Shown piece by piece: positions 1 through 54,312 of a stretch of DNA of 64,000 bases (positions are counted from its first letter, which is position 1; each line of letters begins with the position of its first letter). Origin of the DNA: Styela clava (Eukaryota); the NCBI RefSeq assembly GCF_964204865.1, contig NC_135263.1, positions 13,702,001 through 13,766,000 on the forward strand, in the 5' to 3' direction. The position numbers and the translations under genes were made by a program. A model generated the notes under the pieces. The model saw only the letters and a program-made list of their open reading frames with translations. It searched no databases and was not told the DNA's origin.

Positions 1-920
1 GTCATATCCCACTGCTTTGCCATCTGAAAGGCTTGCTATAGTGCCAAATACTTCATTGATTGTTGCTGGTCTAAGAAATAAGGACTCTTTCACTGAATTT
101 TTGAGATTAGTCAAGAACGAGTCATTAGAATGTGGAATCTTTTCAGACAGTTGTGGGCCTATAGAGGTAAAATAATTGTTAAGGTAATTGGCAATGCACA
201 CTGGATCACTTACTTTAGTCCCATTGTCAGTTCTCAGAGCTTTGATTGAACTCTTTTTTTCTTGTTTGATGTTAGCTAAATGCCCAATCAATTTCCGAGT
301 GGATTTAATGTCACCACAAATTTGTTGGAATTTATTCAAGTAATACAACTTTTTTGCTTTAGTTATAAAAGTCTTAAGTAAAATACTATAAGTTTTATAT
401 TGTGTGTAGTTACCTTTTTTAAAGTGTGTTTTATACATTTTACGTTTCTTTTTAATGGAAACATGAATCCCTTTTGTGAGCCAAGGTTTCGCAAAACGTC
501 TCGATTCGCGTCGACTTAATGGACTCATTGGTGCATGTATATCGATAATTGAACGAATTATGTCGATGAATATTTCAAAAAAAGTGTTCAAGTTATCACT
601 TGTGATTTGACAATTCGAAATGGGACTTAGGGATGATTCTAGATTAGATCTATATGCGTCAATAGAAAAATGTTTCATATTTCGTTTGAGTATTAGATCT
701 CGATTTTGACCCGGTCCAGAATTTTGAGGAGAGACTGTGCAGAACTGTGGATTATGGTCACTGATGTCACTAAGAATAATAAAGCTTGCTAAGTTATAGT
801 TTATTGCATTTGTGAGGATATTATCAATAAGTGTACTAGAAAAACGAGTTACTCTAGTTGGTGATCAAAGGCAGTGACAAATTAGCTAGCAGCATGTCAG
901 TATATTTCATGGTGGTCAAA
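1..920 (-). mobile_element. 5'-truncated non-LTR retrotransposon (LINE, L2/CR1-group-like) ORF2 fragment: end of APE endonuclease plus linker towards RT; runs off the left edge
   Basis: Minus frame 861->1 is open: PTRVTRFSSTLIDNILTN...SDISDHNPQF (APE C-terminal motifs)...KPWLTKGI...IANYLNNYFTSIG...KAVGYD. A frameshift near 862 joins upstream KYTDMLLANLSLPLI. Abuts RNB-family sequence at ~921. Confidence 0.85.
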
Positions 921-921
921 T

Positions 922-2310
922 CATTTACTCTAGTACAAATTTCGGAAGAATATTCATTCAGGAAATTTCCGAAAAGAGAGTTTGGAATTCTCTGGAGCTA
1001 TTTTATGAATACTAAACTCTTCATCGAGATCGACATTTTATTGCTTCCAGGTTGAGAGATATCAAAGATTGGACAGTAAACATATTGTAGGTAAACGTAT
1101 GCATCGTTACAACCAATGTGCAAAAAAATATGTTGATGACAACGTAATCACAAAACGTACATCTATTGCAACAGATAAATGTAAAAATTGTGATAACAGT
1201 CTTATTGTTCCACAAGATATGTACAATGAATCACAAAGCGTTATTTCGAAGAAAAATGTTTGCGTCGGGAAACTTGCGCCTTTCTTGCCTACTTCAGATT
1301 TATTTCTCTCTATAGAGCCACCGCAGTCAACTAGAATGGTCGTTAAATATCATCGAGACGTGAAGTTAGCATCAGACTTGCTCGAAGATAATATCGTAGA
1401 TTTCACCTCACCGTTGCGGAAAAGTTTAAGCAAAATCAACCAGCAAATACTAATAGATTCTAATTTTTTGCCGAGATCACCTCCGTACTCACTAAATGAT
1501 TTCCTTGGTCTGATTTGTGATCGTTACAAATCTCCACACTTGGCTGACGATGTGAATGAAAATGGGAAAACCATTGTACTTCTTAATGATGTTAACTGTA
1601 GTCCCGATAGTTACTTCAATCAGAAATACGTGAATTTGAATCGCAACAACATTGACGAAATATTAGAGGATTGGGAAAATGAAAAATTTTCGGAGAAAAT
1701 CAAACAATTTTTTGAAGGTCAAAAGTCTCAACCAGAATCAATCTTATATCCGTATAATAATAACGGAAGTGATACATTGTTCACCGTAGCATCCAATTTC
1801 AGACTGAAACTACAAGTGTCAGAATATGACGTTGGAAAAAACGACGAACTCAGCTTAAGATTGCTCAGCATCGGTACAAATTGTCATTTATGCTTGACTC
1901 ACATAAACGACTTGGCATTCATATCGAATAGAGCAGACATTAATGCACTTGGAATCATGAAAAACATAGAATTCTTGGAAAGAGCACGTACAAACGGACG
2001 AAAACCTTTGATTTTACGTCTTGAAAATACTCAAGTGAAATGACATTTCAAAATTTTATTCTGACGGATCCTTTATATGTTCGAAGCCGGTTGGCGTAGG
2101 CGATTTACTTTGCATTCGACAAGATATTTTAGAGTGTGGTACTATACAGTACGTTTGGGTAGCTTATGCAGTGGTGAAAGATATCGCTAGTGACAAAGTT
2201 TTGTTCTCGGTTTGCACGTTATCACAGGATGTTGAGTCTAGCAAAAGCCCTATTTTTTCTGTGGAAGTTATACACATTCCACAGTGCCATCAGACAAAAA
2301 TTGGAAATGA
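922..2310 (+). pseudogene. CCCH-RNB (HELZ2-like) family copy A, pseudogene; 5' part cut off by the LINE
   Basis: Homology to the family starts FTLVQISEEYSF at ~923. Frameshifts near 1020 and 1080, an in-frame deletion (LADDVNENGK lacks ~40 aa present in paralogs) and a TGA at 2041. The 3' remnant DLLCIRQD...VWVA...FSVEVIHIPQCH continues to ~2310. FTSPLRK retained. Confidence 0.85.
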
Positions 2311-7638: not shown

Positions 7639-9306
7639 TTAGAGCTGTTCATTTTCGTTTTCAGGTTGATGGCACTGTGGAATCTGTATAACTTCCACAG
7701 AAAAAGTTTGGCTCTGGCAAGACTTATCATCCTGTGATAACGTGCAAACAGAGAACAAAACTTTGTCATCTGCGAACTCTTTCACCACTGCATGAGCTAC
7801 CCAAACGTATTGTATAGTACCACACTCTGAAATATCTTGACGAATGCAAAGTAAATCGCCTACGTCGACCGGCTTCGAACATATGAAGGATCCTCCCGAA
7901 TAAAATTTTGAATCCCAGTTCACTTGAACATTTTCAAGACGTAAAATCAAAGGTTTTTGTTCGTTTGTGAGTGCTCTCTCCAAGAATTCGATGTTTTCCA
8001 TGATTCCAAGAGCATTAATGTCTGTTCTATTCGACATGAATGCCAAGTCGGGATTTTTAATGTGGGTCAAGCACAAATGACAATTTTCCCCGATGCTGAG
8101 TAATCTTAAGCTGAGCTCGTCGTTCCTTCCAACGTCATATTGTGACACTTGTAGTTTCAGTCTGAAGTTAGTTGCTACAGTAAACAATGTATCGAAACCA
8201 ACCATCTTGTATGGATATAAAATTGATTCTGGTTGAGATCTCTGACGTCCGAAAAATAGTTTGATTTTCTCTGGAAAATTTTCATCCCCCCAATCCTCTA
8301 ATATTTCGTCAATGTTGTCACGATTCAAATTTACGTATTTCTGATTGAAGTAATTATCAGGATCGCAGTAAACATTCTTGAAAAGTACAATGGTCTTTCC
8401 ATTTTCATTGTTCACTTCCACGTTGTAGTGAAGTTCACCGTAACGCATTTTTCTTGTTGGTATCGACTTTCTCATATTATGTTTCACGTTATTAAACATA
8501 TATGACACTGAAAATTTAATTTCACTTACATTCGATATCATCGCCTCAGCCAAGTGTGGAGTTTTGTAACGAATACAAAGTAGACCACACAAATCATCTC
8601 GTGAGTACAGTGTTGAGCTTGGCGAGAGAATAGAATTAATTAATATTTGTTGGTTGAATTTGCTTTCATATTTACTCAGAGGTGAGGTGAAATGTACAAT
8701 ATCATCATCGCACAAGTTTGATGCTAATTTTACATCTCGGTGATATTTAACGATCATTCTTGTTGACTGTGATGGTCCTTTAGAAAGAAAGAAATCTGAA
8801 GTAGCCAAGAAAGGCGCAAGTTCCTCTACGCAAATTTTTTTCTTTAAAATAACGCTTTGTGATTCCTTGTATATATCTTGTGGAACAATAAGACTGTTAT
8901 CATAATTTTTCAATTTTTCTTTTGTAATAGATGTACGTTTTGTGATTACGTTGCCAACAACATATTCTTTTGCACATTGGTTGTAGCGATGCATAACTCC
9001 ACCAACAAGTATATTTGCCTTCCAATCTTCAACATTTCCCAATATAGCGGGGATATAATCACTGTTTCTCCGAAGAGATTTAGTGTCCATGAAATATCTC
9101 CAAAGAAATTCATGCTCTCTCGGGGGTTCTATTAATGAATATTCCTCCAAAATATGTACTAGAGTAAATGTTGGTGCGCTTGCATTAAGAGAACAATTGG
9201 TATGAAAATAAATTGACAGAGCCAATGAAATATTTCTTCTTGAAAAACCGTTTGAAGATCCAACTGTATGTAAATGATTTGAGATTCCATTTTGGCTAAA
9301 TTCCAT
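7639..9306 (-). CDS. CCCH-RNB family copy C: 555-aa N-terminally truncated ORF lacking zinc finger, OB fold and catalytic D-x7-DD motif
   Basis: Uninterrupted ORF homologous to the C-terminal ~3/4 of the paralogs (LALSIYFH, HFTSPLSKY, LCLTHIKNP, LCIRQD, WVAH). The ATG lies at a rearrangement junction. May be a pseudogene. Confidence 0.6.
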   Translation of the reverse strand: MEFSQNGISNHLHTVGSSNGFSRRNISLALSIYFHTNCSLNASAPTFTLVHILEEYSLIEPPREHEFLWRYFMDTKSLRRNSDYIPAILGNVEDWKANILVGGVMHRYNQCAKEYVVGNVITKRTSITKEKLKNYDNSLIVPQDIYKESQSVILKKKICVEELAPFLATSDFFLSKGPSQSTRMIVKYHRDVKLASNLCDDDIVHFTSPLSKYESKFNQQILINSILSPSSTLYSRDDLCGLLCIRYKTPHLAEAMISNVSEIKFSVSYMFNNVKHNMRKSIPTRKMRYGELHYNVEVNNENGKTIVLFKNVYCDPDNYFNQKYVNLNRDNIDEILEDWGDENFPEKIKLFFGRQRSQPESILYPYKMVGFDTLFTVATNFRLKLQVSQYDVGRNDELSLRLLSIGENCHLCLTHIKNPDLAFMSNRTDINALGIMENIEFLERALTNEQKPLILRLENVQVNWDSKFYSGGSFICSKPVDVGDLLCIRQDISECGTIQYVWVAHAVVKEFADDKVLFSVCTLSQDDKSCQSQTFSVEVIQIPQCHQPENENEQL

Positions 9307-24300: not shown

Positions 24301-24705
24301 TTGGATGATGCGATCGAGAACATTGGGATTTTTCTTCTAACTCTAATATTTTCGGGCTAGCAGTTTCAGAAACTTTTACGATATTGTTAATACATTGTTC
24401 ATAACGACAAATGAAATTATTCAATTCAGTTTCCTATAAAATGTTCTTCATATTTTTGACAATGGAGGATAAACTTGATTTGTACTGCACTAGTTTTAGA
24501 AACACCTCTTGGATACCAGAACTTTCCACTTCATGGAAGGCTGATTTCAATGAGTTACTATTTTCTTCACTGCTAGTGGTGACAGAAGTCATTTCAGCAG
24601 CAGAGAATATTTTGATTGGTTTGCTTTTTGAAGTTTCACATAGGGATGAGATTTCCAAACCATCTTTTGAATTAGCAATATGATTTCTTCAGATTTTGTT
24701 GACAT
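18365..24705 (-). CDS. BEL/Pao gag-pol polyprotein; 2019-codon open frame 18365-24424, N-terminus disrupted by TAG (24434-24436) and a probable frameshift near 24690
   Basis: Gag with three Cys/His knuckles, protease LLDGQS, RT YVDD, RNase H HFSDAS, integrase HH-CC and D-D-E (MDIFG / WDCGSNF / VERQIR), C-terminal WKLGRVVEVFPSGDGLVRKV typical of BEL/Pao. Confidence 0.9.
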
Positions 24706-28699: not shown

Positions 28700-30040
28700 T
28701 AAATTTGTATTTTGCAATAACTGAAATTGTCAATATTTAATATTTCAAAATGTTATAATTAAATATAATTGAATATGTAATTAATAAAGTTTAGAATGCC
28801 AGCCACCTGTTGTTGTCGCAATAGTCAAATAAATACATATTTACTGTGCCTTCCAAACATTCTTACATATTTACCTTCAAAAACAGTATGAGACCATTAA
28901 ATATTTAGTTTATGTACAATTTCTTTGTTTTAAGTTATCGACTTTATTAAATCTCGACCACACGGGGCTCATCATTAGTTCATGATTTAATTAACTGTAT
29001 TTCGACATATCATGATAAATAATTAGCAAGATGGAATTTGATTTTCGTCAGAACTATCCCTTTATTAAACGCAACACATCGACTATAAATTTAGATACTT
29101 ATTGAGACAAAGAAGGACAGATGTATAATGGGTTTAAGAATTACGAAAAGGATAGAATTGTGATGTATAGTGTTCGGTATACGTAAATTTTATCCCAATA
29201 AAATAGGGTCAGTGAAAACCAATATCCATAAAGTTTTCTGTGAATAGTGTTTAAACCCATTTGCATTCTAATCGAAGCTTTAGTTAGCCAGGTAGTCATA
29301 GGCGCATGGGTATAAGTATCCTCGGCTGGATGTGGCAAATGTTCGAATATAAAACCGCAAACCCGGGAAACTAACCTTATCTTCAGATAGTAATGAAGTT
29401 GATTAATAGTATATACCAAGTTCCAAATTTGAGATATATATCAGATTTGCCTTATTTTATAATTGTATTGACGTTATAAATCAGTTATAATTTACTACAA
29501 ACAACCGAAAGCTGATCCCTTTGTTTGCCAATGAAGCTGGCCAATAGCCTACTGTTAGTTTATACTCATAACTCATATTTTTAGAAGAAATGCTACAAAT
29601 CGTGATGTTCGCGCTCAAGCATATACCGAGTACCAAAGCAAACTTTGGTTTGCGTGTGGATACTAACTCTGTCAAATGAGCGAGTCAGTTTGTTTGGTAT
29701 TCATTAGATCATTTTATGTTTTTTGTAAAATAAAAACAAAAACTAGTAAAGGTATAATAATCGTCTGTGATTTCTACACACCAAGTGTTTTTAGCTTCTG
29801 TGATTGATTCTAATGATGCGAAGATGGAAACATGTCAAAATTATATGACTTTCGGATCATGCAAATTCGGGTATAGGTGTACAGTCATCCACCAGAAGAA
29901 CATTCCGATTCAGAATTATTTATTGCTACTGTAGCGGAACTTTCAAAGGGTAATAACTTAACAGTTGGAATCAAAAGAATTGATGCTGAAATTCCCGAAA
30001 CCTATTTTTTTCCGAATAATCCCTGGTGTCGAGCAAATGC
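28700..30040 (+). repeat. Upstream region plus 5' end of copy D, duplicated at ~33000-34552
   Basis: Colinear similarity from tgtcaatatttaatatttcaaaatgtta through the zinc-finger codons. Confidence 0.8.
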
Positions 30041-31991
30041 TGAAGTTGGTGATCTTGTGTTATTTCAAAAATCAAAAAAAGTGAAGAAGATACGAAAAAT
30101 GTCAGGAAGTTGGAGACAACCACTTGATTATAACTGCGGTAGAATAGTTAAAATATTGTTGAAGGCGATCCAACATAAAGTCAACCGGATGAAAATTAAT
30201 GTGATATCAAATCTGGTTAAAGCTTTTACAATAGACACTGAAGGAACCGTACGTTATGATGACGCTTTCAGCATTGAAAAGTGTAAGAAATGCAGAAAAC
30301 CCGAATGTAGTAAAATAGGAATACACATCTCTGCCCAGTCGACAGATACAAACCCCCTATATACAGATAAAAATGGGTTTTTGGAAGGTCGTGTTACATT
30401 GGGGCTGTCATTTTATTTCCATACCTCCTGTTCTCCGAATGCAAGCGTTCCAACATTTACTCTAGTAAACATCTTCAAAACGTATCCCTTTCTGAAATTT
30501 GAAAAGAAAGAAGAGTTTAAAATTCTCTGGAACCATTTCATGAATGCCAAATATCTTCAAAGGTGTAGTTATAGTATTGTAGCTCGGTCACGAGAAATTG
30601 AAGATTGGAAAGTAAATTTACTTGTCGGTAAAATGATGCATAGCTACAACGACAGCGCAAAGAAGTATATTTCGGGTCATGTAATCACTAGACATACATC
30701 AATTCAAATAATGAAAAGAGAAAGCAAAATTCTCCTGGTACCACGTGATTTTTACGATGGCGTAAAAAGTATTATATCAAAAACATGTTTTGGTGTTGAA
30801 GAACTCGCGCTTTTTCTAGCATCTTCCGATTTGTTTCTTTCTGTGGAACCAACGGACTCGACTAAAAGAGGCATTAAATACAATCTAGGAGTTAAGTTAG
30901 CATCAGACTTAATTCAGGAAGATATACCGCAATTTACTTCGCCGCTGCGAAAACTTCCGAGCAAGATCAATCAGCAAATATTAATGAATTCGTGTGTGTC
31001 ACCGAGCTCGACCTTGTTTTCGCGAGATGATTTGCTTGGTCTGCTTTGTATTCGTTACACAGATCCATACTTGGCTGACGCTTTGATAACCAACGTTGGC
31101 ACGAATACCTTTTCAGTCGCATATCTTTTCAACAATATAAGACGTCGTATACGCCATTTTCAACCAACAAAAACAATACGTTATGATCAACTTCACTATA
31201 ACGTGGAAAAGACAGTTGAAGACGAGAAGACTATTGTGCTTCTTAGAAATGTTCATTGTGAACCTGGTACTTATTTCAATCAAGAATACGTTACTTTGAT
31301 TCGCGGGAACATTGATGAAATTTTGGAGGATTGGGGAAATGAAAATGTTCCGGAGAAAATTAAACAATATTTCGAAGGATCTCAACCGGAATCAATTCGA
31401 TATCCCTATAAGAAGAGAGGTTGTGATACATTGTTCATCGTGGAATCCAATTTTCTTGTTAAGCTCCAAGTTTCAGAACATGACGTTAAAAGAAACAAAG
31501 AACTCAGCTTAAGATTACTCATTATCGGGCCAAATTGTCATTTGTGTTTGACCCATATCAAAAATCCTGAATTAGCATTCACATCAGATAGAACAGACAT
31601 AAATGCTCTGGGTATCATGGAAAACATTGAATTTTTGAAAAGTTCATCCACAAGCGAACACAAACCTGTGATTGTACGACTGGAAAATGTTCAAGTTCAG
31701 TGGGATTCAACGTTCTATTCGGGGGGCTCGTTCATAAGTTTGAAACCGGTTAACGTAGGCGATTTTCTTTGTATTCGCCAAGATATTTCTGAATGCAAAA
31801 GTAGACCACCGTATGTTTGGGTAGCCCATGCAATAGTCAGGGAAGTTGCAAATGAAAAAGTTTTGTTCTCGGTGTGCACTTTATCACAAAATGACAGATC
31901 TTGTGGAACAGGGCGTTTTTCAGTGGAAATTATACAAATTCCAAAGTGTCTTCAATCTGACGACGGAATCGAAAAGTCCAAAAGCACTTGA
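29824..31991 (+). pseudogene. CCCH-RNB family copy D: full length but frameshifted in the zinc finger (36-aa ORF 29824-29934; main frame open 29877-31991, first ATG 30099)
   Basis: tgtacagtcatcc versus tgtacacacagtcatcc in copy E = 4-bp deletion. Main frame has AFTIDTEGTVRYDDAFSIE, IGIHI, FTSPLRK and FLCIRQD...WVAH...FSVEII. Could still encode a 630-aa protein from 30099. Confidence 0.7.
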
Positions 31992-35337: not shown

Positions 35338-37537
35338 ATGAGTAAGATATGCAGAGTGTACGACAATTTTGGAACGTGCCAATTTGGATATAAATGTAAA
35401 TATGATCATCCAACAAAACACTTCAACTCGGAAATTTTTACTGCAAAGGTAGAAAAAATTAGTAAAACTAATAGGATTATAATTCACAGAATTGACGATG
35501 ACAGATCAGAAACTTATTTCTTTCCAACTTCTCCCTGGCATCGACTGGATGCTAAAGATGGAGATCTTGTGATATTTCAAAAATCAGAGAAAGTAATAAA
35601 AATTTACAATGAAAAGAATCAAAAATATAATATTGGCAGGATAGTTATAGTAATGCCAACATCTATCGGTGATCAAACCGGCGTAATACAAATCAATAGA
35701 GTTCCAAATCAAATCCAACATTTCAAATATAAGTTCCAAGACAAAGCTTTTACGTGGGACACTGAAGGAACCAAACGTCGCGATGACGCTCTCAGTATTG
35801 AACTATGTCAGAACAAAGAAAACTGTAAAAAAATAGGAATACATATCATTGCTGATTCTATATGCTCAAATCCTTTACATATAGATGAATATTCAATTGG
35901 TTTTTCGAAGAAAAATACTAATCTGGCTCTTTCATTCTATTTTCATACTATCTGCTCTGAAAATATAATCGCACCGACATTCAATTTAGTACGAATCTCG
36001 AAAGAATATTCATTCAGGGAATATCTGAAAGATCCAGAGAAGAAGAAAGAGTTTAATGATATTCTTTAGCCATTTTTCATGGATACTAACTACATTCAAC
36101 GGGGACGACATGTTATCGCGTCTACCTTGGGAAGTAAGTATTGAAGACTGGAAAGTAAGTTTACTTGTTGCTAAACTTATGCACCGCTACAACCAATGTG
36201 CAAAAAAATATGTTGTTAGCAACTACAAACTGTTGGTAATTACAAAATGTACATCTATTGCAACAGAAAAATGGGAAAATTGTGATAACAGTCTTATTGT
36301 CCCACAAGATATATACAATGAATCACGAAGCGTTATTTCAAAGAAAAAAACTTGCGTCGAGGAACTTGCGCCTTTCTTGGCTACTTCAGATTTATTTCTC
36401 TCTGTAGAGCCACCGCAGTCAACTAGAATGGCCGTGAAATGTCATCGGGACGTGAAGTTTGACTCAGATTTGCTTGAAGATGATATCGTAGATTTCACCT
36501 CACCGTTGCGGAAAAGTTTTAGCAAAATCAACCAGCAAATACTATTAAATTATATTCTTTCGCCGAGATCACTTCTGTATTCACGAAATGACTTGCTTGG
36601 TCTGATTTGTGATCGTTACAAAACTCCACACTTGGCTGACGCTGTGATACCAAATGTTGGTGCAATTAATTTTTCAGTCTCATATATTTACAATAACGTA
36701 AAACACAATTTGATTAACCTGAGACCAACTAGAAAAATTTGTTATGGCGAACTTCACTACAACATGGAGGTCGAAACTGAAAATGGGAAGACCATTGTAC
36801 TCCTTAAGAATGTTAACTGTGATCCTGATAATTACTTCAATCAGAAATACGTGAATTTGAATCGTGACAACATTGACGAAATATTAGTGGATTGGGGAAA
36901 TGAAAATTTTCCGGAGAAAATCGAACAATTTTTTGAAGGTCAAAATTCTCAACCAGAATCAATCTTATATCCTTACAATAATATCGGTTCTGATACATTG
37001 TTTACTGTGGCATCCAACCTCAGACTGAAACTTCAAGTGTCAGAAAAGGACGTTGGAAAAAACGACAAACTCAGCTTAAGATTGATCAGTATCGGGTCAA
37101 ATTGTCATTTGTGCTTGACTCACATAAAAAATCCCGACTTGGCATTCATATCGAATAGAGCAGACATTAATGCTCTTGGAATCATGAAAAACATAGAATT
37201 CTTGGAAAGAGCACGTACAAACGGACGAAAACCTTTGATTTTACGTCTTGAAAATACTCAAGTAAAATGTAATTCAAAATTTTATTCTGGAGGATCCTTT
37301 ATATGTTCGAAGCCGGTTGGCGTGGGCGATTTACTTTGCATTCGACAAGATATTTTAGAGTGTGGTACTTTACACTACGTTTGGGTAGCTCATGCAGTGG
37401 TGAAAGAAATCGCGAGTGACAAAGTTTTGTTTTCGGTTTGCACGTTATCACAGGATGTTGAGTCTAGCGAAAGCCCTATTTTTTCTGTGGAAGTTATACA
37501 CATTCCACAGTGCCATCAGCCTAAAATTGGAAATTAA
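35338..37537 (+). pseudogene. CCCH-RNB family copy F: full length, nonsense codon plus frameshift
   Basis: MSKICRVYDNFGTCQFGYKCKYDH (CCCH) and TWDTEGTKRRDDALSIE. TAG at 36067-36069 where paralogs have TGG (ILW). A 4-bp AAGT duplication at ~36132-36139 shifts the frame; the remainder is open to 37537. Confidence 0.85.
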
Positions 37538-40500
37538 CGGTCATAGGCTTTTGTATTGTATATCAGTTTTAAGCGTTGATGGATACCAACATACATGCAT
37601 TAGTTTAGCGCTTCTAAAAACGTAAACAACATGTATTTCATATAAATAGGGCTTTTCATGTACATATATATGGATTTCATCACGATAATTTTCTATAGAT
37701 TTTTGCATTTCTAACTGCATATTTCAGCTTTAGCAAATATATTCAAATGTTCATTCAAATAAATAAATACCCTCTTTTATGTGATTGATAATGTTTATTT
37801 TCAGAAGATACGTTCCCATTTTTAATATACATGTGAAAGTTGTCAGAATGTACAATTTGCAATGCATATCATTCACTTAATATATCAAACAGCAAATCAA
37901 GAACTAATGAAAGTTCCAAAGATATGCATGTCTCTGAAACGAGCATACAAGCATTCATTTGAAAACAAATAAATTAACAATGAAGTTAAGGAGTCCCGGT
38001 ATACAACAATATCATTTTGTGTTCAAACTAATTAAAATAGTGTAATATTTTTGTTGTTTTTGTGGCCTACCTATGTGACGTAATCGTTGAGGTATTTGTA
38101 AATAATCGTTTACGTAATTGTGACGTAATCATTGAATCTTGCTTATTAGACACGGAAATAAAGAAGGGATTCGAAGCTCGTAGAAACATCCATACTATCC
38201 TTTTCCACTATTTAGTATCAACCATAAATGTACCATCTAATAAAAATGAGAAGTTCGGAGTCATCAAGAATGTTAAAAGTTGCTTGTTTTTGATTAGTCC
38301 ATGGTGACATCATAGACCAGAATCCAAATTAACTCCAACTCTGATTAGAACCGTTGAAACCAAAATCGATTATTCATAATAACTTCGTTAAAAAATAATT
38401 TTACAAGTTTTTTGAAATATGTTTTATACCAGTCCATATCAAATCAAAATTTCATTCTCCGAATATCATCAACATAGAAACAAATTTAATTCTAACGATT
38501 TCAAAATAAATATAAGTAGATGTACGTACGTTTCAATCGGTACGACGTACATTATTACCTGAATTATTAATTGGAGTTTAGACTTATGACATGTAACGAT
38601 ATTATGTTTATTTTGAATATGTATTTGCTGTTAGATTAGGGTATATACAGGTTGGGCCAAAAAATGTTGTTCAGAATGTAAAAACGGTAATATTTTTTGG
38701 CCCATCCTGTATATATATGTATATACTGCTCTATATCTTTTTAATAACAGTTTTTCGAATTGAGAATTTGATTATATGTTTTGTATATCGTTCAAATACT
38801 AAAATGAAACCAATGAAGCTATGATTATTCATCACTGTAGGGGGCGATCTTCGTACAGAGAATTTTGGGTTCAGAAACAGTTCTATCAGGTAATCCTGGG
38901 TTATCTTGTACAAATCAGAGCAAGAAAATTAACAAATAATATTGTAGACTCAGACTATTTCTATAACATAAGGCTGAGGTTCGAATCAAAGATTATGTAC
39001 ATAAAATGAGATGCTGATCTTGTAAAGCTCGATTAGGTGTCAAAATTTTGCAATGATCAGGCTTAAACACAAGTACGATGAAGCAGTATCTGGACCCAGG
39101 AATCGATTCATCGATGCAAAATTGATGCACTCATGCGCCTCATAGCCAAGTACTGCGTGTTTTTTTGTTTTTATTTGTTTTTTTTTAGAGAACGTAAAAT
39201 CAATCAGGACGATTTTTGAAAATAATGAATAGTGAAAGTATGACATGTCATTTTAATGTTAAATAAACTCACTGAAACACAATATACAGGCAACTCCAAT
39301 TAATTACAATACAATATAATGACAATAGAGAACTAATCGAGACTTTTCATACGCTTTTTATATGACATTGGCTTGAATAAACATTATAAAATTGCCTCAT
39401 CATAAGAAATTAATCCGCTCCTGTCAATTTCGCCCGTTCATCCGAATAAGGAATTTATGATTTAGTTAATTTATTGTATTTATGTCGAGATTATTTTTGA
39501 AACCTTATATATTGTTTTATACGATATAAATAATCATTCATAATCTTTCTTACAACATTTTTTGAATTCGATCTTGATTTTTTTGAAATAGTCTTTTATA
39601 TTTTCGTCAACCAAGTATTTGTGAATTTTTGAAAACAGTAGAAAGAGGAAAATTTTGATTTTATTAATACCAAAGTGTAGTCATTACCCGAATTATTGTG
39701 AAATATACTCTTTGTTTAGCAGGCTATATAGCAAATTTTAAGATTTAAGAATTGACGAAATTAGGTGTATGCCCAAGGATTGGGCTGGTTTCAGTGAATG
39801 AAAAATCTCAGTCCGTTTGATATTTTAAAAACATTTCCTTCATGGACTAGTTAAAGCTCATCAATGTTATTTAAATGAAAAACATATATATCTTTTAGGT
39901 TTCATTAGCAAAAATTAATTAGAATTTTGAAACTTTCATACTCTGGAACTTCATTAAAAGAGTCATTGCATTACAGAAAATTTACTTTGTGTCTATGGAA
40001 AGATTTGATGCATTAATTAAGCCATATTCTTAATAGTTTTTATTAGTTTTGACAAACGAACTATCATATTACAAGATATCACTATATATATATATATATA
40101 TATTACGACTCCAAATATCAGGGGTGCCAAACCTGCTTTCGACCGCGATCGACTAAAATCTTCAAAATAGCTCGCGATTGACTGATCGGCCCAGTCTCAA
40201 ATACTGTATGTGTGTATTGTATTTTGCGCATTTATTAGTACTTTATTTTTGCTTCTTTAAAATACTGGTTAGGGGCAATTTTTGGGATATTTTATTAAAT
40301 TCACTCAACTTTAGACGCGATAGACTGCTCGAGACATGGCGATTGACCGTCGATCGCGATTGACGTGTTGGCGACCCCTGGAATAGACGTTTGGTTAAAG
40401 CAATCTTAAAAATCTATAAATGAAAAAATCAATACAAAAAGCTAAAATAATGAAGCAAAAACATATAATTAAAGTAGGCATAGAAAAAATGTTGGTGACT

Positions 40501-40796
40501 GTTTTTGCAATTTCGCAGTTACAATTAGGAATCTGTATAACTTCAATCGAAAAATATCCACTGTCATGATGGTTGTCATTTTGCGATAAAGTGCAAACTG
40601 AAAACAGAACATTGGCATTAGTAATTTCTCTGACAACTCCATGGGCTACCCAAACATAACAATCAGCATCGCCTTTAGAGATATCTTGGCGAATGCAAAG
40701 GAAATCTCCTACATGGACCGGTTTTGTACATTTGAACGAGCCTCCCGAACAGAACATTGAATCCCAGTGGACTCGAACACTTTCTAGTCGTAGAAT
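36180..40796. repeat. Segmental duplication block 1, copy b
   Basis: Colinear with 1100-6108. Confidence 0.9.
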
Positions 40797-42650
40797 CAAA
40801 GGTTTTCGTCCCTCTGTAATGGCTCTCTGCAAGAATTCAATGTTTTCCATGATACCCAGAGTATTTATGTCTGTTCTATCTGACATGAATGCCAATTCGG
40901 GATTTTTTACGTGGGTCAAACACAAATGACAATTTGTTCCGATACTGAGTAATCTTAAGCTGAGGTCGTCGTTCTTTCCAACGTCCTTTTCTGACACTTG
41001 AAGTTTCAGTCTGAAATTAGATGCTACGGTAAACAATGTATCAGAACCGTTATTATTGTAAGGATATAGAATTGATTCTGGTTGAAAATTTTGACCTTTA
41101 AAAAATTGTTTTATTATCTCCGAAAAATTCTCATTTTCCCAATCCTCTAATATTTCGTCAATGTTGTCACGATTCAAATTCACGTATTTCTGATTGAAGT
41201 AATTATCAGGATCACAGTTAACATTCTTAAGAAGTACAATGGTCTTTCCATTTTCATTTTCGACCTCCATGTTGTAGTGGAGTTCGCCATAACAAATTTT
41301 TTTAGTTGGTCTCCAGTTCATCAAATTATGTTTTATCTTATTGTAAATATATGAGACTGAAAAATTAGTTGCACCAACATTTGTTATCACAGCGTCAGCC
41401 AAGTGTGGAGTTTTGTAACGATCACAAATCAGACCAAGCAAATCATTTCGTGAGTACAGAAGTGATCTCTGCGAAAGAAATGAATTTATTAGTATTTTCT
41501 GGTTGATTTTGCTTGAAATTTTCCTCAAAGGTGAGGTGAAATCCACGATATCATCTTCGAGCAAGACCGATGCCAACTTCACGTCCCGATGATATTTAAC
41601 GGCCATTCTAGTTGACTGCGGTGGCTCTACTGAGAGAAATAAATCTGAAGTAGCCAAGAAAGGCGCAAGTTCTTCAATGCAAATTTTTTTCTCCAAAATA
41701 ACGCTTTGTGTGTCATTGTATATATCTTGTGGAACAATAAGACTGTTATCACAATTTTCCCATTTTTCTGTTGCAATAGATGTACGTTTTGTGATTACGT
41801 TGCCACCAACATATTGTTTTGCGCATTGGTTGTAACGATGCATGAGTTTACCTACAAGTATGTTTACTTTCCAATCTTCAATATCTCTCAACCTAGAAGC
41901 AATAAAATGCCGATCTTGATAAAGAGATTTAGTATCTATGAAATATCTCCACAGAATTTGAAACTTCTTTCTTGGACATTCCATGAATGAATATTCTTCC
42001 GAAATTCGTACTAAGGTGAAGGTTGGTGCGCTTGCATTCACAGTACAATTGGTATGAAAATAAATAGACAGAGCCAACGAGTTATTTTTCTTTGAAAAAC
42101 CATTTGAGTATTCATTTATATGCAGAGGATTTAAGTTTGTGGATTCAGCAATGATATGTATTCCTATTTTATTACAATCAGATTTTCTGCATTTTTGACA
42201 TTGTTCAATACTGAAAGCGTCATCGTGACGTTTGCATCCTTCAGTATCTAACGTAAACGCCTGCACCTTCATTTTTCCTCCGATAATTTTATCACCGATA
42301 GCTTTTAACAATATTGAAACTATTCGACCAATATTAAGTTGACTTCCTTGTTGTGGTTTCCTCCAATTGTCTTCTTCGTCGTGAATTTTTATAACTTCAT
42401 CTGATTTTTGAAATATCACAAGATCCCCGTTTTCAGCATTTTTTCGATGCCAGTAATTTTTAGGCAGGAAATAAGTGTCTGACTTTTCATCTTCAACTCT
42501 TTTAATATAAATTCGGGGTTTTGCATCACTAACTTGCTCTACGACCGCGGCAAAATATTCTGTGTTTATATTTTCTGATAAATGAACTTTTCTACATTCA
42601 GATCCATACATGCATGCTCTAAAAGTGATATAATCTCGGCATGTATTCAT
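40395..42650 (-). CDS. CCCH zinc finger - OB - RNB (RNase II family, HELZ2-related, helicase-less) protein with C-terminal transmembrane tail, 751 aa; copy G, the only intact family member
   Basis: ATG at 42650; C-x8-C-x5-C-x3-H (CRDYITFRACMYGSECRKVH); RKNAENGDLVIFQ...IGRIVSILLK (CSD/OB-like); AFTLDTEGCKRHDDAFSIE...IGIHIIAE; FTSPLRK..SKINQKIL; DFLCIRQD...YVWVAHG...FSIEVI; hydrophobic tail IFSMPTLIICFCFIILAFCIDFFIY-RFLRLL. Confidence 0.85.
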   Translation of the reverse strand: MNTCRDYITFRACMYGSECRKVHLSENINTEYFAAVVEQVSDAKPRIYIKRVEDEKSDTYFLPKNYWHRKNAENGDLVIFQKSDEVIKIHDEEDNWRKPQQGSQLNIGRIVSILLKAIGDKIIGGKMKVQAFTLDTEGCKRHDDAFSIEQCQKCRKSDCNKIGIHIIAESTNLNPLHINEYSNGFSKKNNSLALSIYFHTNCTVNASAPTFTLVRISEEYSFMECPRKKFQILWRYFIDTKSLYQDRHFIASRLRDIEDWKVNILVGKLMHRYNQCAKQYVGGNVITKRTSIATEKWENCDNSLIVPQDIYNDTQSVILEKKICIEELAPFLATSDLFLSVEPPQSTRMAVKYHRDVKLASVLLEDDIVDFTSPLRKISSKINQKILINSFLSQRSLLYSRNDLLGLICDRYKTPHLADAVITNVGATNFSVSYIYNKIKHNLMNWRPTKKICYGELHYNMEVENENGKTIVLLKNVNCDPDNYFNQKYVNLNRDNIDEILEDWENENFSEIIKQFFKGQNFQPESILYPYNNNGSDTLFTVASNFRLKLQVSEKDVGKNDDLSLRLLSIGTNCHLCLTHVKNPELAFMSDRTDINTLGIMENIEFLQRAITEGRKPLILRLESVRVHWDSMFCSGGSFKCTKPVHVGDFLCIRQDISKGDADCYVWVAHGVVREITNANVLFSVCTLSQNDNHHDSGYFSIEVIQIPNCNCEIAKTVTNIFSMPTLIICFCFIILAFCIDFFIYRFLRLL

Positions 42651-45600
42651 TATCACATTGCAGTAGAGATATTGAGGAAATCAGGGCGATCAAATGTCCT
42701 AGATTAAGAATCTGTATTTGTGAAAATTGACTGATTAGTTTTTAACATATAATACAATGAAATAAAATATTAAAACAAAGCGTATAACATATGCCTAACG
42801 AATGATGTTGCAAACGCATTGTTTTAATTTCTGTAAGTTTCGTATATAAGTCAGAGCTGTAGCGATAAATTGAGAACAATAATTACTCTGGAATGTGCCC
42901 ATTAAATCGTGAAAAAAAAATAGTGAAAATAAATAATTCTCGTTTGTGATAACTTTGAAAATCACGGATCCTTAACATTTCCGATTATTGTCGATTGTTT
43001 GATCCTATATTTTCGACAAACATGACGATAAGATTAAAAAATATGAAATCATAATATTACTTATCAATGATCTCAGTCTCAAGCTTCATACCTCAACTAG
43101 TTGACTGGCCAAAACAAACTGTAATGTTTATATTTAAAGCTCGACTGCAGTAGCTCCCAACATGTTTCTACACTGGTGGCGATATTGTTTAATTGAATTA
43201 ACTAATGTACGATATCATTATAGTAACAGAACTTTAGCCAATCGCTCGCCCTGTGAACCTCCTAAATCTTTTACCAATAATACGTTCAGAATGACTACGC
43301 GCTCTACAACGACAGTAAAATGTTCTTATGAGTAGGCGTAATCAAGCGTACTCAGTCAGACCTAGCCAGGCGTAGCCAAATTTCAAAAACATTTTAGCGC
43401 CATTCTTTGAGATATTGTTTGATATCAATGGCTAATTTTATTTGGCTTTGTTTGAAGCGAAAGGCACGAGTGAGCGTCCAATTACGTCATTATACAAAAT
43501 ATATTCAACGAGAAGTAACTGAGGTGGGTTCGCCCTACTTGACGAACAAATATTTCAATGAATAAACAAGTACAATTTTATGTGAAAATTACCTGAAAAA
43601 TTATTACCACAGTAAGACAAAACAAAATAATGAAATTAATCCAAAAATCCAGTACAATTACAAGTATCTTCAACACAAAAGGACGGTTCCTAAATTGAAA
43701 AATTCTGAAAAACTACTTTCCCCTATTATTCGTAACAGTAATACAATGAGATTTATCCCTAAAATGTTCAGGGCTGAATCAATTCGGGTCGTCAATAGCT
43801 TTTAATCTAATATATCGCAACGTCCACAGCTGACTATTCAAGTGAGATGCGAAAAGGTTGTTCGAGCTATATACTGTCAACTTGCTCACCATCAAATAAC
43901 CTAGCTCATCAAATATAAAAACTTACTAAACCTTTTGCTTCATGAATGTGCAAATAGTATAAAGTGCTACGAAAATTTCAACGAGATGGGTTCACCGTTG
44001 TGAGTGGCATAACATCTGTTATATTTGTACAGAAAATTAAATTGCACTTGTAAAATATGACATCTGCTCATATAATTTATTATACAGGACAAGCAACAAT
44101 AACATAAAAAAAAAGGAAATTTTAAAATGAGGGAGTCCATTTTAATTAAAACATAATAAAAAGTTTGGGAGCATGCATATCATTGTAATCATTTGATGGA
44201 ACTTTGTCAGCAATACATATTTGAATAAAAATCGGTTGGTGTTTTATGTCGAGTATGAAACAGGCCCATTAGAATACTATTTGTAGAGCTATTTTGATAA
44301 AAAATTAGGAATTGTTTTAGAAATAGTATATGATTTATTTTAGAAACGACATTTAGTTAGACGTTGCACGACACTAACAACATATATCTCTACCAACAAA
44401 ATAAAATTATAACATTGTAGCTAATGTAGAAATTACACGTTCGCGTTTATTGTCGCTAAATTTTGCAATGACTGAGGTTTTTACCATTTTATTTAAGAAT
44501 TAATAGAATTTATTAATCTCAGCATTACTTAAAATACGTAGTTCTAAGTTTAAAAAAAAATAAATGTTTCTGAAATCAATGCAAATTTTCATATTCAGCT
44601 CAATCAAATTTGTTCGAATCCTAAAACTGCTATTGAATAAATATAAAGCAGTATACATATATATTTATATATGCCTCAAGCCTCCCAATATTTCTCAATC
44701 ACTATAACATCGACCAACTCAAAACTATTAAAATCAGAAATACACCATGTGTTTTTCCTTAATTAAAATTGGAACAAATCTTTCTTTGTCCCAATCATCC
44801 TCTAAATTCTATTTGATTTGTTGTGCTTGAAGACTTCGTATGTTTGAAAGCAATACTATTCGTTTTGTTAAATATTAATCAAATAGTACATGCTATGTCG
44901 AAATAATATTGCTATCGAATTGTGTTAAATCATAAACCAATTAGGGAACTTGGTTGATCGAGCTTAAAATGTACTTGATAAATTTGAAAATGAACATAAC
45001 CATTGTGTTGTATTGATTGTTATCTGGCAACCTTGTTTGATGTTGTTTTCGAGTAACTAAGATACATAGCCAAAATGTATTTATTTAATAACTCCAATAG
45101 CTACTCGCGGGTGACTTTTTAATGTATTTTCAATTTTCGTGACATTTCGAAATATCAAACATTAACACTTTCCGTGTTTGGATAATTGACGTCAGCTCTT
45201 ATATTTAATTTGATTACTTTCCTGACAGTTGTATCCGAAACTACAGTATCGGCTACTACAAAAATCTATTTTTGCGATAAACAGTTGTTGAAATAATTTC
45301 CATGTAAAATATATGATAAATTTTACCTAGATGTTGGTATCATGTACGCAAAAATTCGTTAGTTCGAAGCCACGATTGTTTCATTCACTCATTTTGTAAC
45401 TAGCGCCTCCGATTCCGAACGGCTCTGCCTAACTTGAAGTTACGTTATTTTTAGAAATAGAGAGTAAAGGCCCATGTCTTAATTAGGTCATCAAAACGAC
45501 AAACTTGCCTTTCCCATTCTAATAGATTTTGTATTAATGCCTTAACATTGGAGAAAATCTTGCATTAACCTTTTGTGATCTTCAGATAAGGAAGTTCGGA

Positions 45601-50762: not shown

Positions 50763-53700
50763 ATGAATTTTATTAGACTATCGTTATTATTAATTATTTT
50801 ATGTTCAATGCTGATGTACTTCATATTCTACCTGTTCATATCAAATCACAACATCGGTGTCAGAAAGACTCAGGACCGTGACATTGAAGCAGGTAATGCA
50901 AGTTCACGTTTATTGTGATGTATGGACCAAAAAATGGCTAATATCAGAGAAAATTTTTGTGAAGATGACAAAAGTAAAAGTTTCCCCGAAACGCTGATTA
51001 TAGGAAAAAAATCTACGAAGAATATAAATACTACAATTGTAAATTATACATAATTTCAAACTAGTTCGAGTTTAGCTTGTAGAAATCTGGGTTTTTATAA
51101 AAGGGGACATTGAAACATAGTGGCTAGTTTTTAACGTATAAACATCCCTGTATCTTGTCTGTGGGAAATTTGAGACTTCCTGCAGCACTACTTCATGACA
51201 ACAAAAGACTACAGATTTACATTGTGAAGAAGAAAAAAGTTACAGATCGAACTTGAAAATCTGCAAAGTAACTTACTATACGTTATCTAATCATGTGTTA
51301 GGCTGGGTTGTCCAAGAAATGGCGCAGTTTACTTGATGAGGGTGGCTTGTATTACATATATACTACTTTCTTCAAACTCCTAACTTTAATTTATTCCATA
51401 AACAGGAATTACCATAGATGATCGTCTTCATATACGAATAGCTGAATGGAATCATTATTTAAAACTTTCGCAGAGTACGGTATGATATGAAGCAGTTTTT
51501 AGCAATATACGATATATGCAGGCATATTGTTAGTATATATACCGGTATATTAGTATTTTTACACACTAATGTTACAGCTTTGGCGTTCTAAAATGCGTAA
51601 TATGGCTAAAATAATATTGGTTTCAAGTTCTAATAGTCTTATTAGTTTAACAAGCAAAAAATTACTGAATTTGTACAACAAATGGTACATATGTGTGTTG
51701 ATTCTGATTTTTATAACCTCTATGTAGAAGAAAACAAAACGACTGCCGAACATCATTGGAATAGGAGTCAAGAAATGTGGAACAGAAGCTATGATAACAT
51801 TTATTCGACAACATCCATTTATTAAAACGCCCAATTACAAAGAGACGTTTTTCTTTAACGAAAAATATGATAAAGGACTGGATTATTACAAGTAAGTCTT
51901 GAAATATTTTATTCCTGCAATCTGTTATTTTTTCCTGTGCAATATTTTATTTCAGGTGATGAAGAACTTATTATGAAGTAGATAGAGTCGTTGTGAAACT
52001 AAGAATGTAAATTACTTTGATAATTGAAAATTTTAATTTTTGGGTCAAATATGCGCTCCCGTCATTAATAATGGTGACCTGACTCCGGAACAACTCAACT
52101 GTGGTTTCTCTGCTTTATAGTTCTAACATTGACATACTTGCATATTCGACAGACGGGCCCTCTATATCAAGTTATGTTTCAGGCCTGAGCGCGTGTTTGA
52201 TTTAGTTTTTTAGTATTATCATCGGATAAAGAAAACTATTATGAGCATGTATTTTGATCTATTAAAGTGTGAGTTTTGTTTGCAGAAGCCAAATGCCAGA
52301 AGTTACAGATGGTGAATTGATCATGGAGAAAACACCACCGTATTTTAATTCTCCTCCGGAATCACTCCCAGAAATAATCAAAAAGGATGTTCCAAATGCC
52401 AAATTGATATTAGTACTGTGTGATCCAGTAAAAAGAAGTTACTCAGATTTTATTCACGAGGTAACTATATATAGATATGATTACTGCGTTGTAATTACTA
52501 CAAGAATATTATTTTATTAAAGTTTTCTCAAACCATGATTAAATTGGCTTTCCCCGTAAATATAATGCTCAGATGCAAATTCCACAAAAATAAAAGTTGT
52601 AGCGATAAGCACAACATTTTTGTTACGACAGAAACGATAATAAAGTATCAGTTGTCAAGAGTCTATGAGCACTAAATTCTATTCTGCACCGACTATGTGA
52701 ATAGCATATTTCAAGTTTGTTTTACAAGTTACCATTGAACCCAACCTTACGTACCCCCTTCAACTAGACAGAGCGTGTTATCATTATACCTGAACAACTG
52801 TGACAAGTGCAAGTGTAGAAAATCTCAATTCGTCTGGAATAATGAACTAAACATAGTCATCGAATCGCTTAGCCCTAGACCACTGGTTCTCAACCCAGGC
52901 CACATGAACATTTCCCCAAACCTAGTTAACACCACCAGAGTTTTTGAAATTCGGTTTCATTTGTGTCGTTATAGTTAAATTTGGATCGGAGTAGCAATAA
53001 ATGATGCTTCTGTTGTTTGCTACAAAGTAGTAATTTGTCATACAACGCTTTACTATATTGTACATTTTCTTACAGAAGGCAATTCCTTTGTTTTGCAGAA
53101 AATAAAACCTCCCAATTTATCAACGGTGACTCAATACAATTCATTTGATGATTATTTGGATGTATACATCGACAGAGTGAAGACATCTTTAGACAAAAAT
53201 AACAATATAACTTTAAAAAACGTCATGTCAAGTTACAAAAATGATTATGCAACAACTCTTTTAACAACGGGACTATATTCAATTCATCTTCCTCGGTGGA
53301 TAAATACATTCAATTCATCTAATTTGCTCATTTTGAACGGAGAAAAAACGATTGAGGATCCAGGACATCAGGTTTGTGCATGATGTATGCTGCTTATTTT
53401 TGTTTCACGAGCCCTTGGTGTTGCGTAAAGATGAGGTAAACACCACAGTTTGATTTAGTTCATTTGATTTCAGTATAATTCGTTTACCAGACTCTGGGTC
53501 AGGACTTGTATTGGTGATCATTCAACCATGCGATGACGTCATATTCTTAAATGGTGTGATATCAAACTAAGAGAGAAGTGCGTACGCAGAATTTGGTCGA
53601 GGGCATATACAAAATTTATAGTTTCTGGCCGTATATTTTTATGTTTTTGTAGCTTTCAGATATTTCACAAAAAGGGAAAATTTAACGTGACACAAAATTA

Positions 53701-54312
53701 GATTCGTAGAAATTCATTATGACGTAATAAGGAATTTTATGTAAAATGTGTTGTGCTGTCATGAATAAATTTTTAAACTATGCACGTACTTTAATATGAG
53801 GTCCAAACGTAGTTACTAATTCTTGTATAATTTTAAATTTGAAAATTAGTAATAATAGAGCAAGTTTTTTTTATCAAGACAATAACAATCTTCAAAACAT
53901 CTAATTACCTAAACTCTTTGACCCGGATTGTAGGAGGTTTATTTATATATTAGAAAACATTGAAGTACCAAACTTAATAATAGTCAATTGATTTGTAAAG
54001 GTAGGCCGAATGCAAGATTTCCTCGGAATACCAAGGCTTCTACAACCAGGAGATTTTGTTCGCAATTCACGGAACGGCCTATATTGTATTCGACCATGGT
54101 GGAATGGTTACGACTTTAAAGCGGAATTCAACAATTCTCCGGATTGGGAGAAAAATTTGATATGTTTGTCAGAAACAAAGAAAGGCAGAACCAGACATAA
54201 AAATGGAAAAGTAAATGTAACGGAAAAGCATATTATTGAATTGAAAAACCTTTATCGATCTTATAACAAAGAACTTTATAAGATGTTGGAGATTAATTTT
54301 GAATGGCTATGA
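50763..54312 (+). CDS. Heparan sulfate glucosamine 3-O-sulfotransferase-like type II membrane protein, ~375 aa (exons 50763-50892, 51406-51479, 51728-51891, 52286-52460, 53099-53371, 54001-54312)
   Basis: GT-AG exons join in phase (1128 nt). N-terminal TM anchor; KRLPNIIGIGVKKCGT (5'-PSB loop), KETFFFN..YDKGLDYY, MEKTPPYF, KLILVLCDPVKRSYSD (3'-PB), TGLYSIHL..W, QDFLG, CLSETKKGRTRH. The exon 2 model is less certain. Confidence 0.85.

Follow-up and report, generated by a model that had tools for sequence, protein, structure and literature searches.

A HELZ2-derived gene family without helicases and with an altered RNB active site in Styela clava

RNB enzymes are processive 3'-5' exonucleases with a near-invariant site of four aspartates and a tyrosine cap. 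A gene on C18 of the 377-Mb Styela clava genome departs from this design: the second aspartate of its motif is an arginine and the domain around the motif is shortened, which raises the questions of what such a protein can still do and where it came from. The window analysed here is a stretch of 64,000 nucleotides (C18:13702001-13766000), and the gene, called G below, lies on its minus strand. An earlier note on this DNA read the motif as a rewired RNB active site; that reading holds in part, and the note missed the HELZ2 origin of the gene, the loss of helicases, the expansion of the family and the removal of the Tyr253 cap. The features of G are as follows (window coordinates; E. coli RNase II residues are given as equivalents).

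40395..42650, minus strand: gene G, a single open frame of 751 aa with its Met at 42650 and the domain order CCCH-OB-RNB-S1-1B
42582..42641, minus strand: CCCH zinc finger, residues 4-23 (C-x8-C-x5-C-x3-H; Cys and His conserved)
42306..42560, minus strand: single OB or cold-shock-like barrel, residues 31-115 (five strands in the model; OB match Z 7.0)
41400..42281, minus strand: RNB domain in shortened form, residues about 124-417 (structure matches: Dis3L2 by Foldseek, E 5.5e-14; RNase II by VIA, Z 16.1)
42219..42248, minus strand: active-site motif D135-x5-R141-x-D143-D144, corresponding to D201, D207 (here Arg), D209 and D210; reads DTEGCKRHDD
42072..42155, minus strand: remnant loop of 29 residues where RNase II has the 55-residue Tyr253 end-cap segment (pLDDT 47-61)
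41847..41852, minus strand: G267-K268 replacing the conserved EE (E389/E390), from the alignment
41523..41537, minus strand: TSPLR, with S373 (S497 equivalent) and R376 (R500 equivalent), from the alignment; roles as described in PMC9841401 and PMC10516660
40992..41399, minus strand: S1-like region, residues about 418-553, boundaries approximate (structural alignment and collinearity with HELZ2)
40533..40991, minus strand: HELZ2 pre-helicase-2 region with a UPF1-type 1B beta-barrel (HHalign and structure match); the gene stops before the RecA domains

Fold and ancestry of gene G

The RNB likeness of G is seen in its predicted structure. An AlphaFold (AF2) model built from an 18-row alignment reached pLDDT 70 and pTM 0.60, with pLDDT 70-83 at the motif (a model from the 14 close paralogs alone, at pLDDT 34.7, was set aside). 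Residues 112-417 of the model match residues 182-547 of RNase II (2ix0; rmsd 4.1, 225 aligned, at the Z score given above), and Foldseek returned 43 matches at E<=0.001, with RNB proteins throughout among the matches listed. Since the predicted fold matches RNase II, the likeness is not a chance one. Pfam RNB gave 13.4 bits for a paralog in the window (copy D) against a cut-off of 29.3 and no match for G; PDB sequence searches with G, A1 and A2 returned no RNB protein, the matches being weak ones to CCCH. In the ESM Atlas, RNB clusters appeared for G at only 0.80 (a lead), and the distant relative P0002 gave no match.

Pfam recognizes the zinc finger only weakly, with zf-CCCH matches in 6 of the 18 members at a best E of 5.7e-6, and there is only one OB barrel according to both the predicted structure and the structure match. 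Its profile gave no significant match to the CSDs of HELZ2 or DIS3 (E 0.32 for a HELZ2 CSD exon), and for this reason the label "CSD1" is withheld. In the S1-like region, the model aligns with the C-terminal ends of Dis3L2 and Rrp44 as far as residue 569, with a different domain packing (rmsd 11-14). The 1B barrel matches UPF1 (2gk6 312-429) at Z 7.1 (rmsd 5.5, 101 aligned), a middling score tied with V-ATPase barrels; its Foldseek E is 3e-3. Two local peculiarities of the gene were also seen. Relative to its 99%-identical twin L002, G misses five residues just before the motif, and the corresponding 15 nt are present in an RNA contig. At its C-terminus (window 40398-40514, minus strand), G, like L002 and L003, carries a hydrophobic tail about 40 residues beyond the usual family end (mean hydropathy 2.8 over 19 residues), which may be a membrane anchor or the product of read-through into the 3' UTR.

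The genome contains two intron-rich HELZ2 genes (C1:14.74-14.77 Mb and C17:11.69-11.72 Mb) as well as DIS3 and DIS3L2. DIS3 is a single open frame of 952 aa (L031:124-2979) and DIS3L2 (L032) almost so. Both HELZ2 genes have the canonical four-Asp motif, with helicase matches on either side of the RNB domain; one was modelled with the guidance of transcript-contig exons and the other by homology, with approximate boundaries. When the family profile was compared by HHalign with the two HELZ2 models, it matched them at 98.3% (E 2.3e-14), collinearly over residues 124-711 of G, as against 36% for a set of DIS3, DIS3L2 and RNase II; all 20 of 20 shuffle controls stayed under 1%. The helicase pair that flanks the RNB domain in HELZ2 is absent from G, whose frame runs from Met to stop, and none of the 34 genome matches to the AAA_12 helicase falls in the clusters on C18, C5 and C2. 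The N-terminal zinc finger that characterizes HELZ2 is present, in CCCH form. What G lacks relative to HELZ2 is thus helicase 1, a CSD and the RecA portion of helicase 2, and the intronless state of the family genes suggests that the family arose through retroposition.

Two other readings were considered and rejected. That G might be one large exon of a full HELZ2 gene does not agree with its Met-to-stop frame, its unspliced stop codon and the lack of AAA_12 in the clusters. An origin from giant-virus RNB proteins, which the Atlas and BFVD list, was set aside as G matches HELZ2 through the pre-helicase-2 region (the tree described below contained no viral sequence). Word-index protein searches gave P0001 as the only paralog, nothing among longer proteins and no HELZ2 from other species. 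A description of a helicase-less, HELZ2-derived family was not found in the accessible parts of the literature on HELZ2, ascidians, tunicates and invertebrate expansions, a search that excluded most subscription journals. Separately, UPF1-like helicase matches occur on C13, C14, C5, C8, C1 and C18, many in open frames of 645-1042 aa and several in tandem; they may represent an expanded group of genes resembling ZNFX1 or MOV10.

A probably rebuilt 3'-end pocket

The three motifs reported in the earlier note are present exactly as it gave them: DTEGCKRHDD (42219-42248, minus strand), DTEGTVRYDD (30234-30263, plus strand) and DTEGTKRRDD (35758-35787, plus strand), as is the FTSPLRK segment with the R500 equivalent. 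Its description of the change as "second catalytic Asp replaced by Arg" is right about the arginine and overstated in the word catalytic: the first, third and fourth aspartates bind Mg, and the second hydrogen-bonds the terminal 3'-OH and is no Mg ligand (PMC8097288). A second Mg is coordinated through the equivalents of D209 and S497 (PMC9841401). With RNB landmarks placed through motif anchors and profile alignment, the three Mg-binding aspartates and the equivalents of S497 and R500 are all present in G. These are residues of a kind known to matter, as the activity of human HELZ2 is abolished by D1601N, S1920L and R1923L (PMC10516660), and RNB homologs missing any one of the active-site aspartates may, according to PMC8097288, be assumed to be inactive. 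The position corresponding to D207 does vary: human HELZ2, an active enzyme, carries Asn (PMC10516660), and Dss1 has Glu (DxxxxxELDD; PMC8097288), so a change at 207 is not new by itself. Supplementary Figure S4 of PMC10516660, an alignment of HELZ2 proteins, may bear on how variable this position is among them. No precedent was found, in the parts of the literature covered, for a reversed charge at 207 combined with deletion of the cap.

G differs from RNB enzymes at further positions. D207N is said to keep partial activity, and E390 to read a 2'-OH; literature reports of D207N or E390A activity were not found. The E389/E390 pair is replaced by Gly-Lys in G and the RRY.D of RNB enzymes by RKISS, and the Y313 position is still aromatic. 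A further change concerns Tyr253, which determines product length and stacks against the RNA's terminal base (PMC3293843; PMC9841401); when it or its counterpart is mutated (Y253A, Y595A), RNase II and Rrp44 remain active and leave longer end products, Rrp44 being five-fold slower (PMC3827031). The segment that carries it, delimited as running from the GxH strand to the strand following CSL, is variable in the family and has no conserved aromatic equivalent. Across 14 paralogs, the cap remnant has 3 invariant columns out of 26; the surroundings of the motif have 18 out of 35 and the remaining RNB domain 59 out of 226. The earlier note had called the PMLP/CSL block unrecognisable, and indeed the Y253/PMLP/CSL block has no sequence counterpart in G.

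Measurement of the domain shows where the shortening lies. The spacing from D209 to R500 is 230 codons in copy D and 291 in E. coli RNase II (NC_000913.3), just as the earlier note had counted, and 233 in G; its figure of about 60 missing residues is accurate relative to RNase II and too small relative to the parent, given that the spacing is 355 and 334 in the genome's two HELZ2 genes and the shortening against HELZ2 amounts to 100-120 residues. Relative to RNase II it is confined to two segments. One is the Tyr253 segment and the other is the Y313-E390 stretch (46 residues in G versus 78 in RNase II), which is already partly shortened in HELZ2 (72 and 61); the E390-R500 stretch is unchanged (108 versus 109). 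The length of the cap loop shrinks stepwise, through 55, 47, 40, 29 and 20 residues.

Copies, selection and distant relatives

The C-terminal domain has 31 matches in the genome; the 25 full-length ones are spread over C18 (18), C5 (6) and C2 (1). From 57 matches to the RNB region, 30 loci were fetched (L028 and L030 overlap); 13 are intact single frames, each over 700 aa and with identities of 55-100%, and 17 are broken or partial. The full DxxxxxDxDD motif is absent from all 13 intact copies, which read D-x5-R-x-D-D, and R500 is kept in 12 (L015, otherwise intact, has Trp). Among the broken copies, position 207 is Cys in L009 and L012, and neither these two nor L016 has R500. The annotated protein P0001 (Styela clava LOC144422904) is identical to the frame at L010. 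Within the window, four relatives of G are in various states of disrepair.

29825..31991, plus strand: paralog D, frameshifted in the CCCH finger, with 4 nt missing relative to its twin L019; motif at 30234-30263
35338..37537, plus strand: paralog F, split over two frames near 36060-36140; motif at 35758-35787
7639..9306, minus strand: paralog L016, 5'-truncated, without the motif and with Ser at the R500 position
891..2290, plus strand: decayed paralog, multiply frameshifted

The earlier note leaned on D and F as support for conservation of the motif; both are broken in the assembly, and the 13 intact copies serve that purpose better. At C18:13.65-13.86 Mb, D-, F- and G-type copies are each present three or four times, some of them almost identical to one another (100% for L019 and L020); this recurrence suggests recent segmental duplication or redundancy in the assembly. 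The tandem cluster has many dead copies and points to birth-and-death evolution. It also contains a Pao/BEL retrotransposon polyprotein frame of 2019 aa (window 18365-24424, minus strand; Peptidase_A17, integrase, DUF1759 and DUF5641). Elsewhere in the window are a fragment that we take to resemble a LINE endonuclease/reverse-transcriptase frame (1-864, minus strand; no Pfam match) and two frames with a likeness to sulfotransferase exons (52979-54312, plus strand).

The family is under purifying selection. A codon model fitted to 13 of the 14 aligned rows (L002 was dropped as a near-copy, and the broken L013 and L018 were kept) gave omega 0.38 overall, 0.29-0.48 by region and 0.29 around the motif, with lnL -12518.9 versus -12693.6 at omega 1. 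Transcription was assessed with runs X1, X2, X3 and X5, none of which is on record as RNA and all of which are taken to contain RNA because they hold spliced HELZ2 contigs. Contigs from X1, X2 and X5 cover the G frame in pieces, and one crosses the stop codon unspliced; G and L002 are indistinguishable in these contigs, and for an intronless gene carry-over of DNA is possible. The upstream flank (42850-43385) had no contig cover in the three runs taken as RNA, a gap that carries no weight here. The results on copies, selection and transcription bear on the proposal that these genes, duplicated from a retrocopy of HELZ2, are now decaying and serve no function. It draws on the 17 of 30 broken or partial loci, D and F among them, and on the intronless state of the genes. 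Against it stand the 13 intact frames, the contigs from spliced-RNA runs that span the frame, and five distant relatives of 689-879 aa (27-35% identity), three of which have a doubled CCCH-OB module; the selection test largely refutes it, and we consider it very improbable.

Those distant relatives come from a full-library search, which gave 12 matches: P0001, ten relatives at 27-38% identity (the five above and five fragments) and one unrelated repeat protein of 5028 aa that was dropped. A metagenome scan with P0008 found no locus. Seven of the ten cover the motif. P0002, with Lys at 207, and P0008, with Arg, keep the three aspartates and R500; P0003, P0004, P0005, P0006 and P0010 have 0-1 Asp in the motif segment, so that no shift of the alignment restores the triad. 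The earlier note had named variability of the motif across the wider family as a point against its reading, and such variability exists, in that five of the seven have lost the motif; it had also argued for selection on the three aspartates, and here it is borne out, since D201, D209, D210 and R500 are kept across three lineages and lost as a block elsewhere. In a tree of 17 rows with HELZ2 as outgroup (three C-terminal fragments omitted; P0008 and P0010 partial), the triad is found in three long-branch lineages, which are about 28-35% identical and all have Arg or Lys at 207, and was lost at least twice, in P0004 (a long branch) and in the clade of P0003, P0005, P0006 and P0010.

How much this retention means depends on the background of conservation. 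Among the genome's own paralogs 33% of columns are invariant, which makes within-genome conservation weak evidence. Across all ten triad-keepers, 30 of 273 RNB columns are identical, and just five of those 30 (D135, D143, D144, R376 and I148) are missing in every one of the four full-length losers. For columns already invariant among the paralogs, the chance that four chosen ones also survive in the two distant keepers comes to about (30/89)^4 = 0.013, a figure that rests on two sequences only. Block loss and retention of these four residues would fit a working catalytic site, as far as two distant keepers can tell from their sequences.

Function and comparison with known systems

On the reading that we prefer, and for which we see an even chance, G is a compact HELZ2 descendant that has shed the helicases and still acts, slowly, as an Mg-dependent RNase whose pocket for the RNA 3' end was remodelled; it is this remodelling that leads us to propose slow, non-processive action. 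The CCCH, OB, S1 and 1B domains would bind single-stranded RNA and guide it into the RNB cleft, where the three aspartates and the serine would hold two Mg ions and R376 the scissile phosphate. Arg141 may grip a phosphate at the spot where Asp207 normally reads the 3'-OH. With the tyrosine cap absent, RNA would be released early and longer products left, and a protein lacking helicases would be limited to unstructured RNA. Its role could be the degradation of foreign RNA or of RNA from mobile elements; by analogy with the published roles of HELZ2 and from the birth-and-death pattern of the cluster, a defence role seems likely.

Counting against activity, the Y253 segment, the EE pair and the RRY.D motif are all changed in G, a combination beyond any single published mutant met in the literature covered; the missing R500 of L015, L009, L012 and L016 counts on the same side. 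The loss of the cap, E390 and RRY.D residues would be expected of a pseudo-nuclease RNA clamp, in which the triad and the arginine bind metal or phosphate without turnover, in the manner of a D209N trap. The distant relatives lend themselves to this reading as well: the motif is lost in five of seven while other invariant residues of the fold stay, from which it follows that the family has some function free of catalysis, and conservation across the family is strongest in the C-terminal region, where 28 of the 45 invariant columns are found (from residue 530 onward). Fungal Dis3L2/Ssd1 proteins, moreover, are known to have lost activity repeatedly (PMC8097288). What speaks against a clamp is that precisely the four chemistry residues covary, and that the Ssd1 type is defined by loss of the Mg-binding aspartates (PMC8097288), all three of which G keeps; for G itself we regard it as possible and somewhat doubtful. 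The third way of reading the site is a nuclease of a changed type, an endoribonuclease or an enzyme acting on 3'-phosphate or cyclic-phosphate ends, that would need no free 3'-OH. Both sensors of that end, D207 and Tyr253, are altered in G, and the residues for the chemistry are retained; all three triad-keeping lineages share a basic residue at 207, and the cap loop has shrunk by steps. P0008, however, has Arg207 together with most of the cap, a Tyr about in place and E390, so that Arg207 and cap loss are not tied, and in the RNB literature covered these domains are described only as 3'-5' exonucleases; judged from the residues present, such an enzyme seems improbable.

Two observations on the wider family concern RNA and metal binding. 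The triad-less P0003, P0005 and P0006 have their CCCH-OB module doubled at the N-terminus, as would be expected if RNA binding had replaced catalysis. Ten Cys and His residues (C151, C159, H165, H199, C574, H575, C577, H580, C652 and H670) are invariant, triad-less full-length members included, and may form zinc sites at the surface of the RNB domain and ahead of the 1B barrel.

What emerges is an overlooked HELZ2-derived family, missed by Pfam, for which a part in tunicate RNA defence is plausible. With site-less sister branches alongside, it is a natural test of which RNB parts catalysis needs; if the changed type of nuclease were true, it would have arisen from HELZ2 through loss of both helicases and of the Tyr253 cap and the gain of Arg at 207, and then have expanded into an RNA defence family of invertebrate chordates, some of its branches active and others dead. 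Production of HELZ2 in bacteria or baculovirus did not succeed (PMC10516660), and a family protein of about 715 aa from an intronless gene should express more easily.

Set beside known systems, G is neither a canonical RNase II nor HELZ2 and, on the best reading of its sequence, is likely an RNB nuclease. With RNase II, RNase R, Dis3/Rrp44 and Dis3L2 it shares the RNB fold (Z about 16), D201, D209, D210, S497, R500 and an S1-like domain, and it differs from them in the D207-to-Arg and E390-to-Lys changes and the two shortened segments. With HELZ2 it shares the collinear RNB, S1 and pre-helicase-2/1B regions and the N-terminal zinc finger, and human HELZ2 also varies at the second aspartate; in contrast, G has no helicase, one OB barrel instead of two CSDs and an RNB domain 100-120 residues shorter, and its family has Arg at 207 (Asp in the genome's HELZ2), lacks the Tyr253 segment and introns, and numbers at least 25 copies. 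That branches of G's family lost the RNB active site more than once and independently recalls Ssd1/Sts5, but those are fungal proteins derived from Dis3L2 (PMC8097288), whereas this family comes from HELZ2 and G keeps the three Mg-binding aspartates. Dss1 likewise tolerates a change at the second aspartate, although its Glu is a conservative replacement and in G the charge is reversed.
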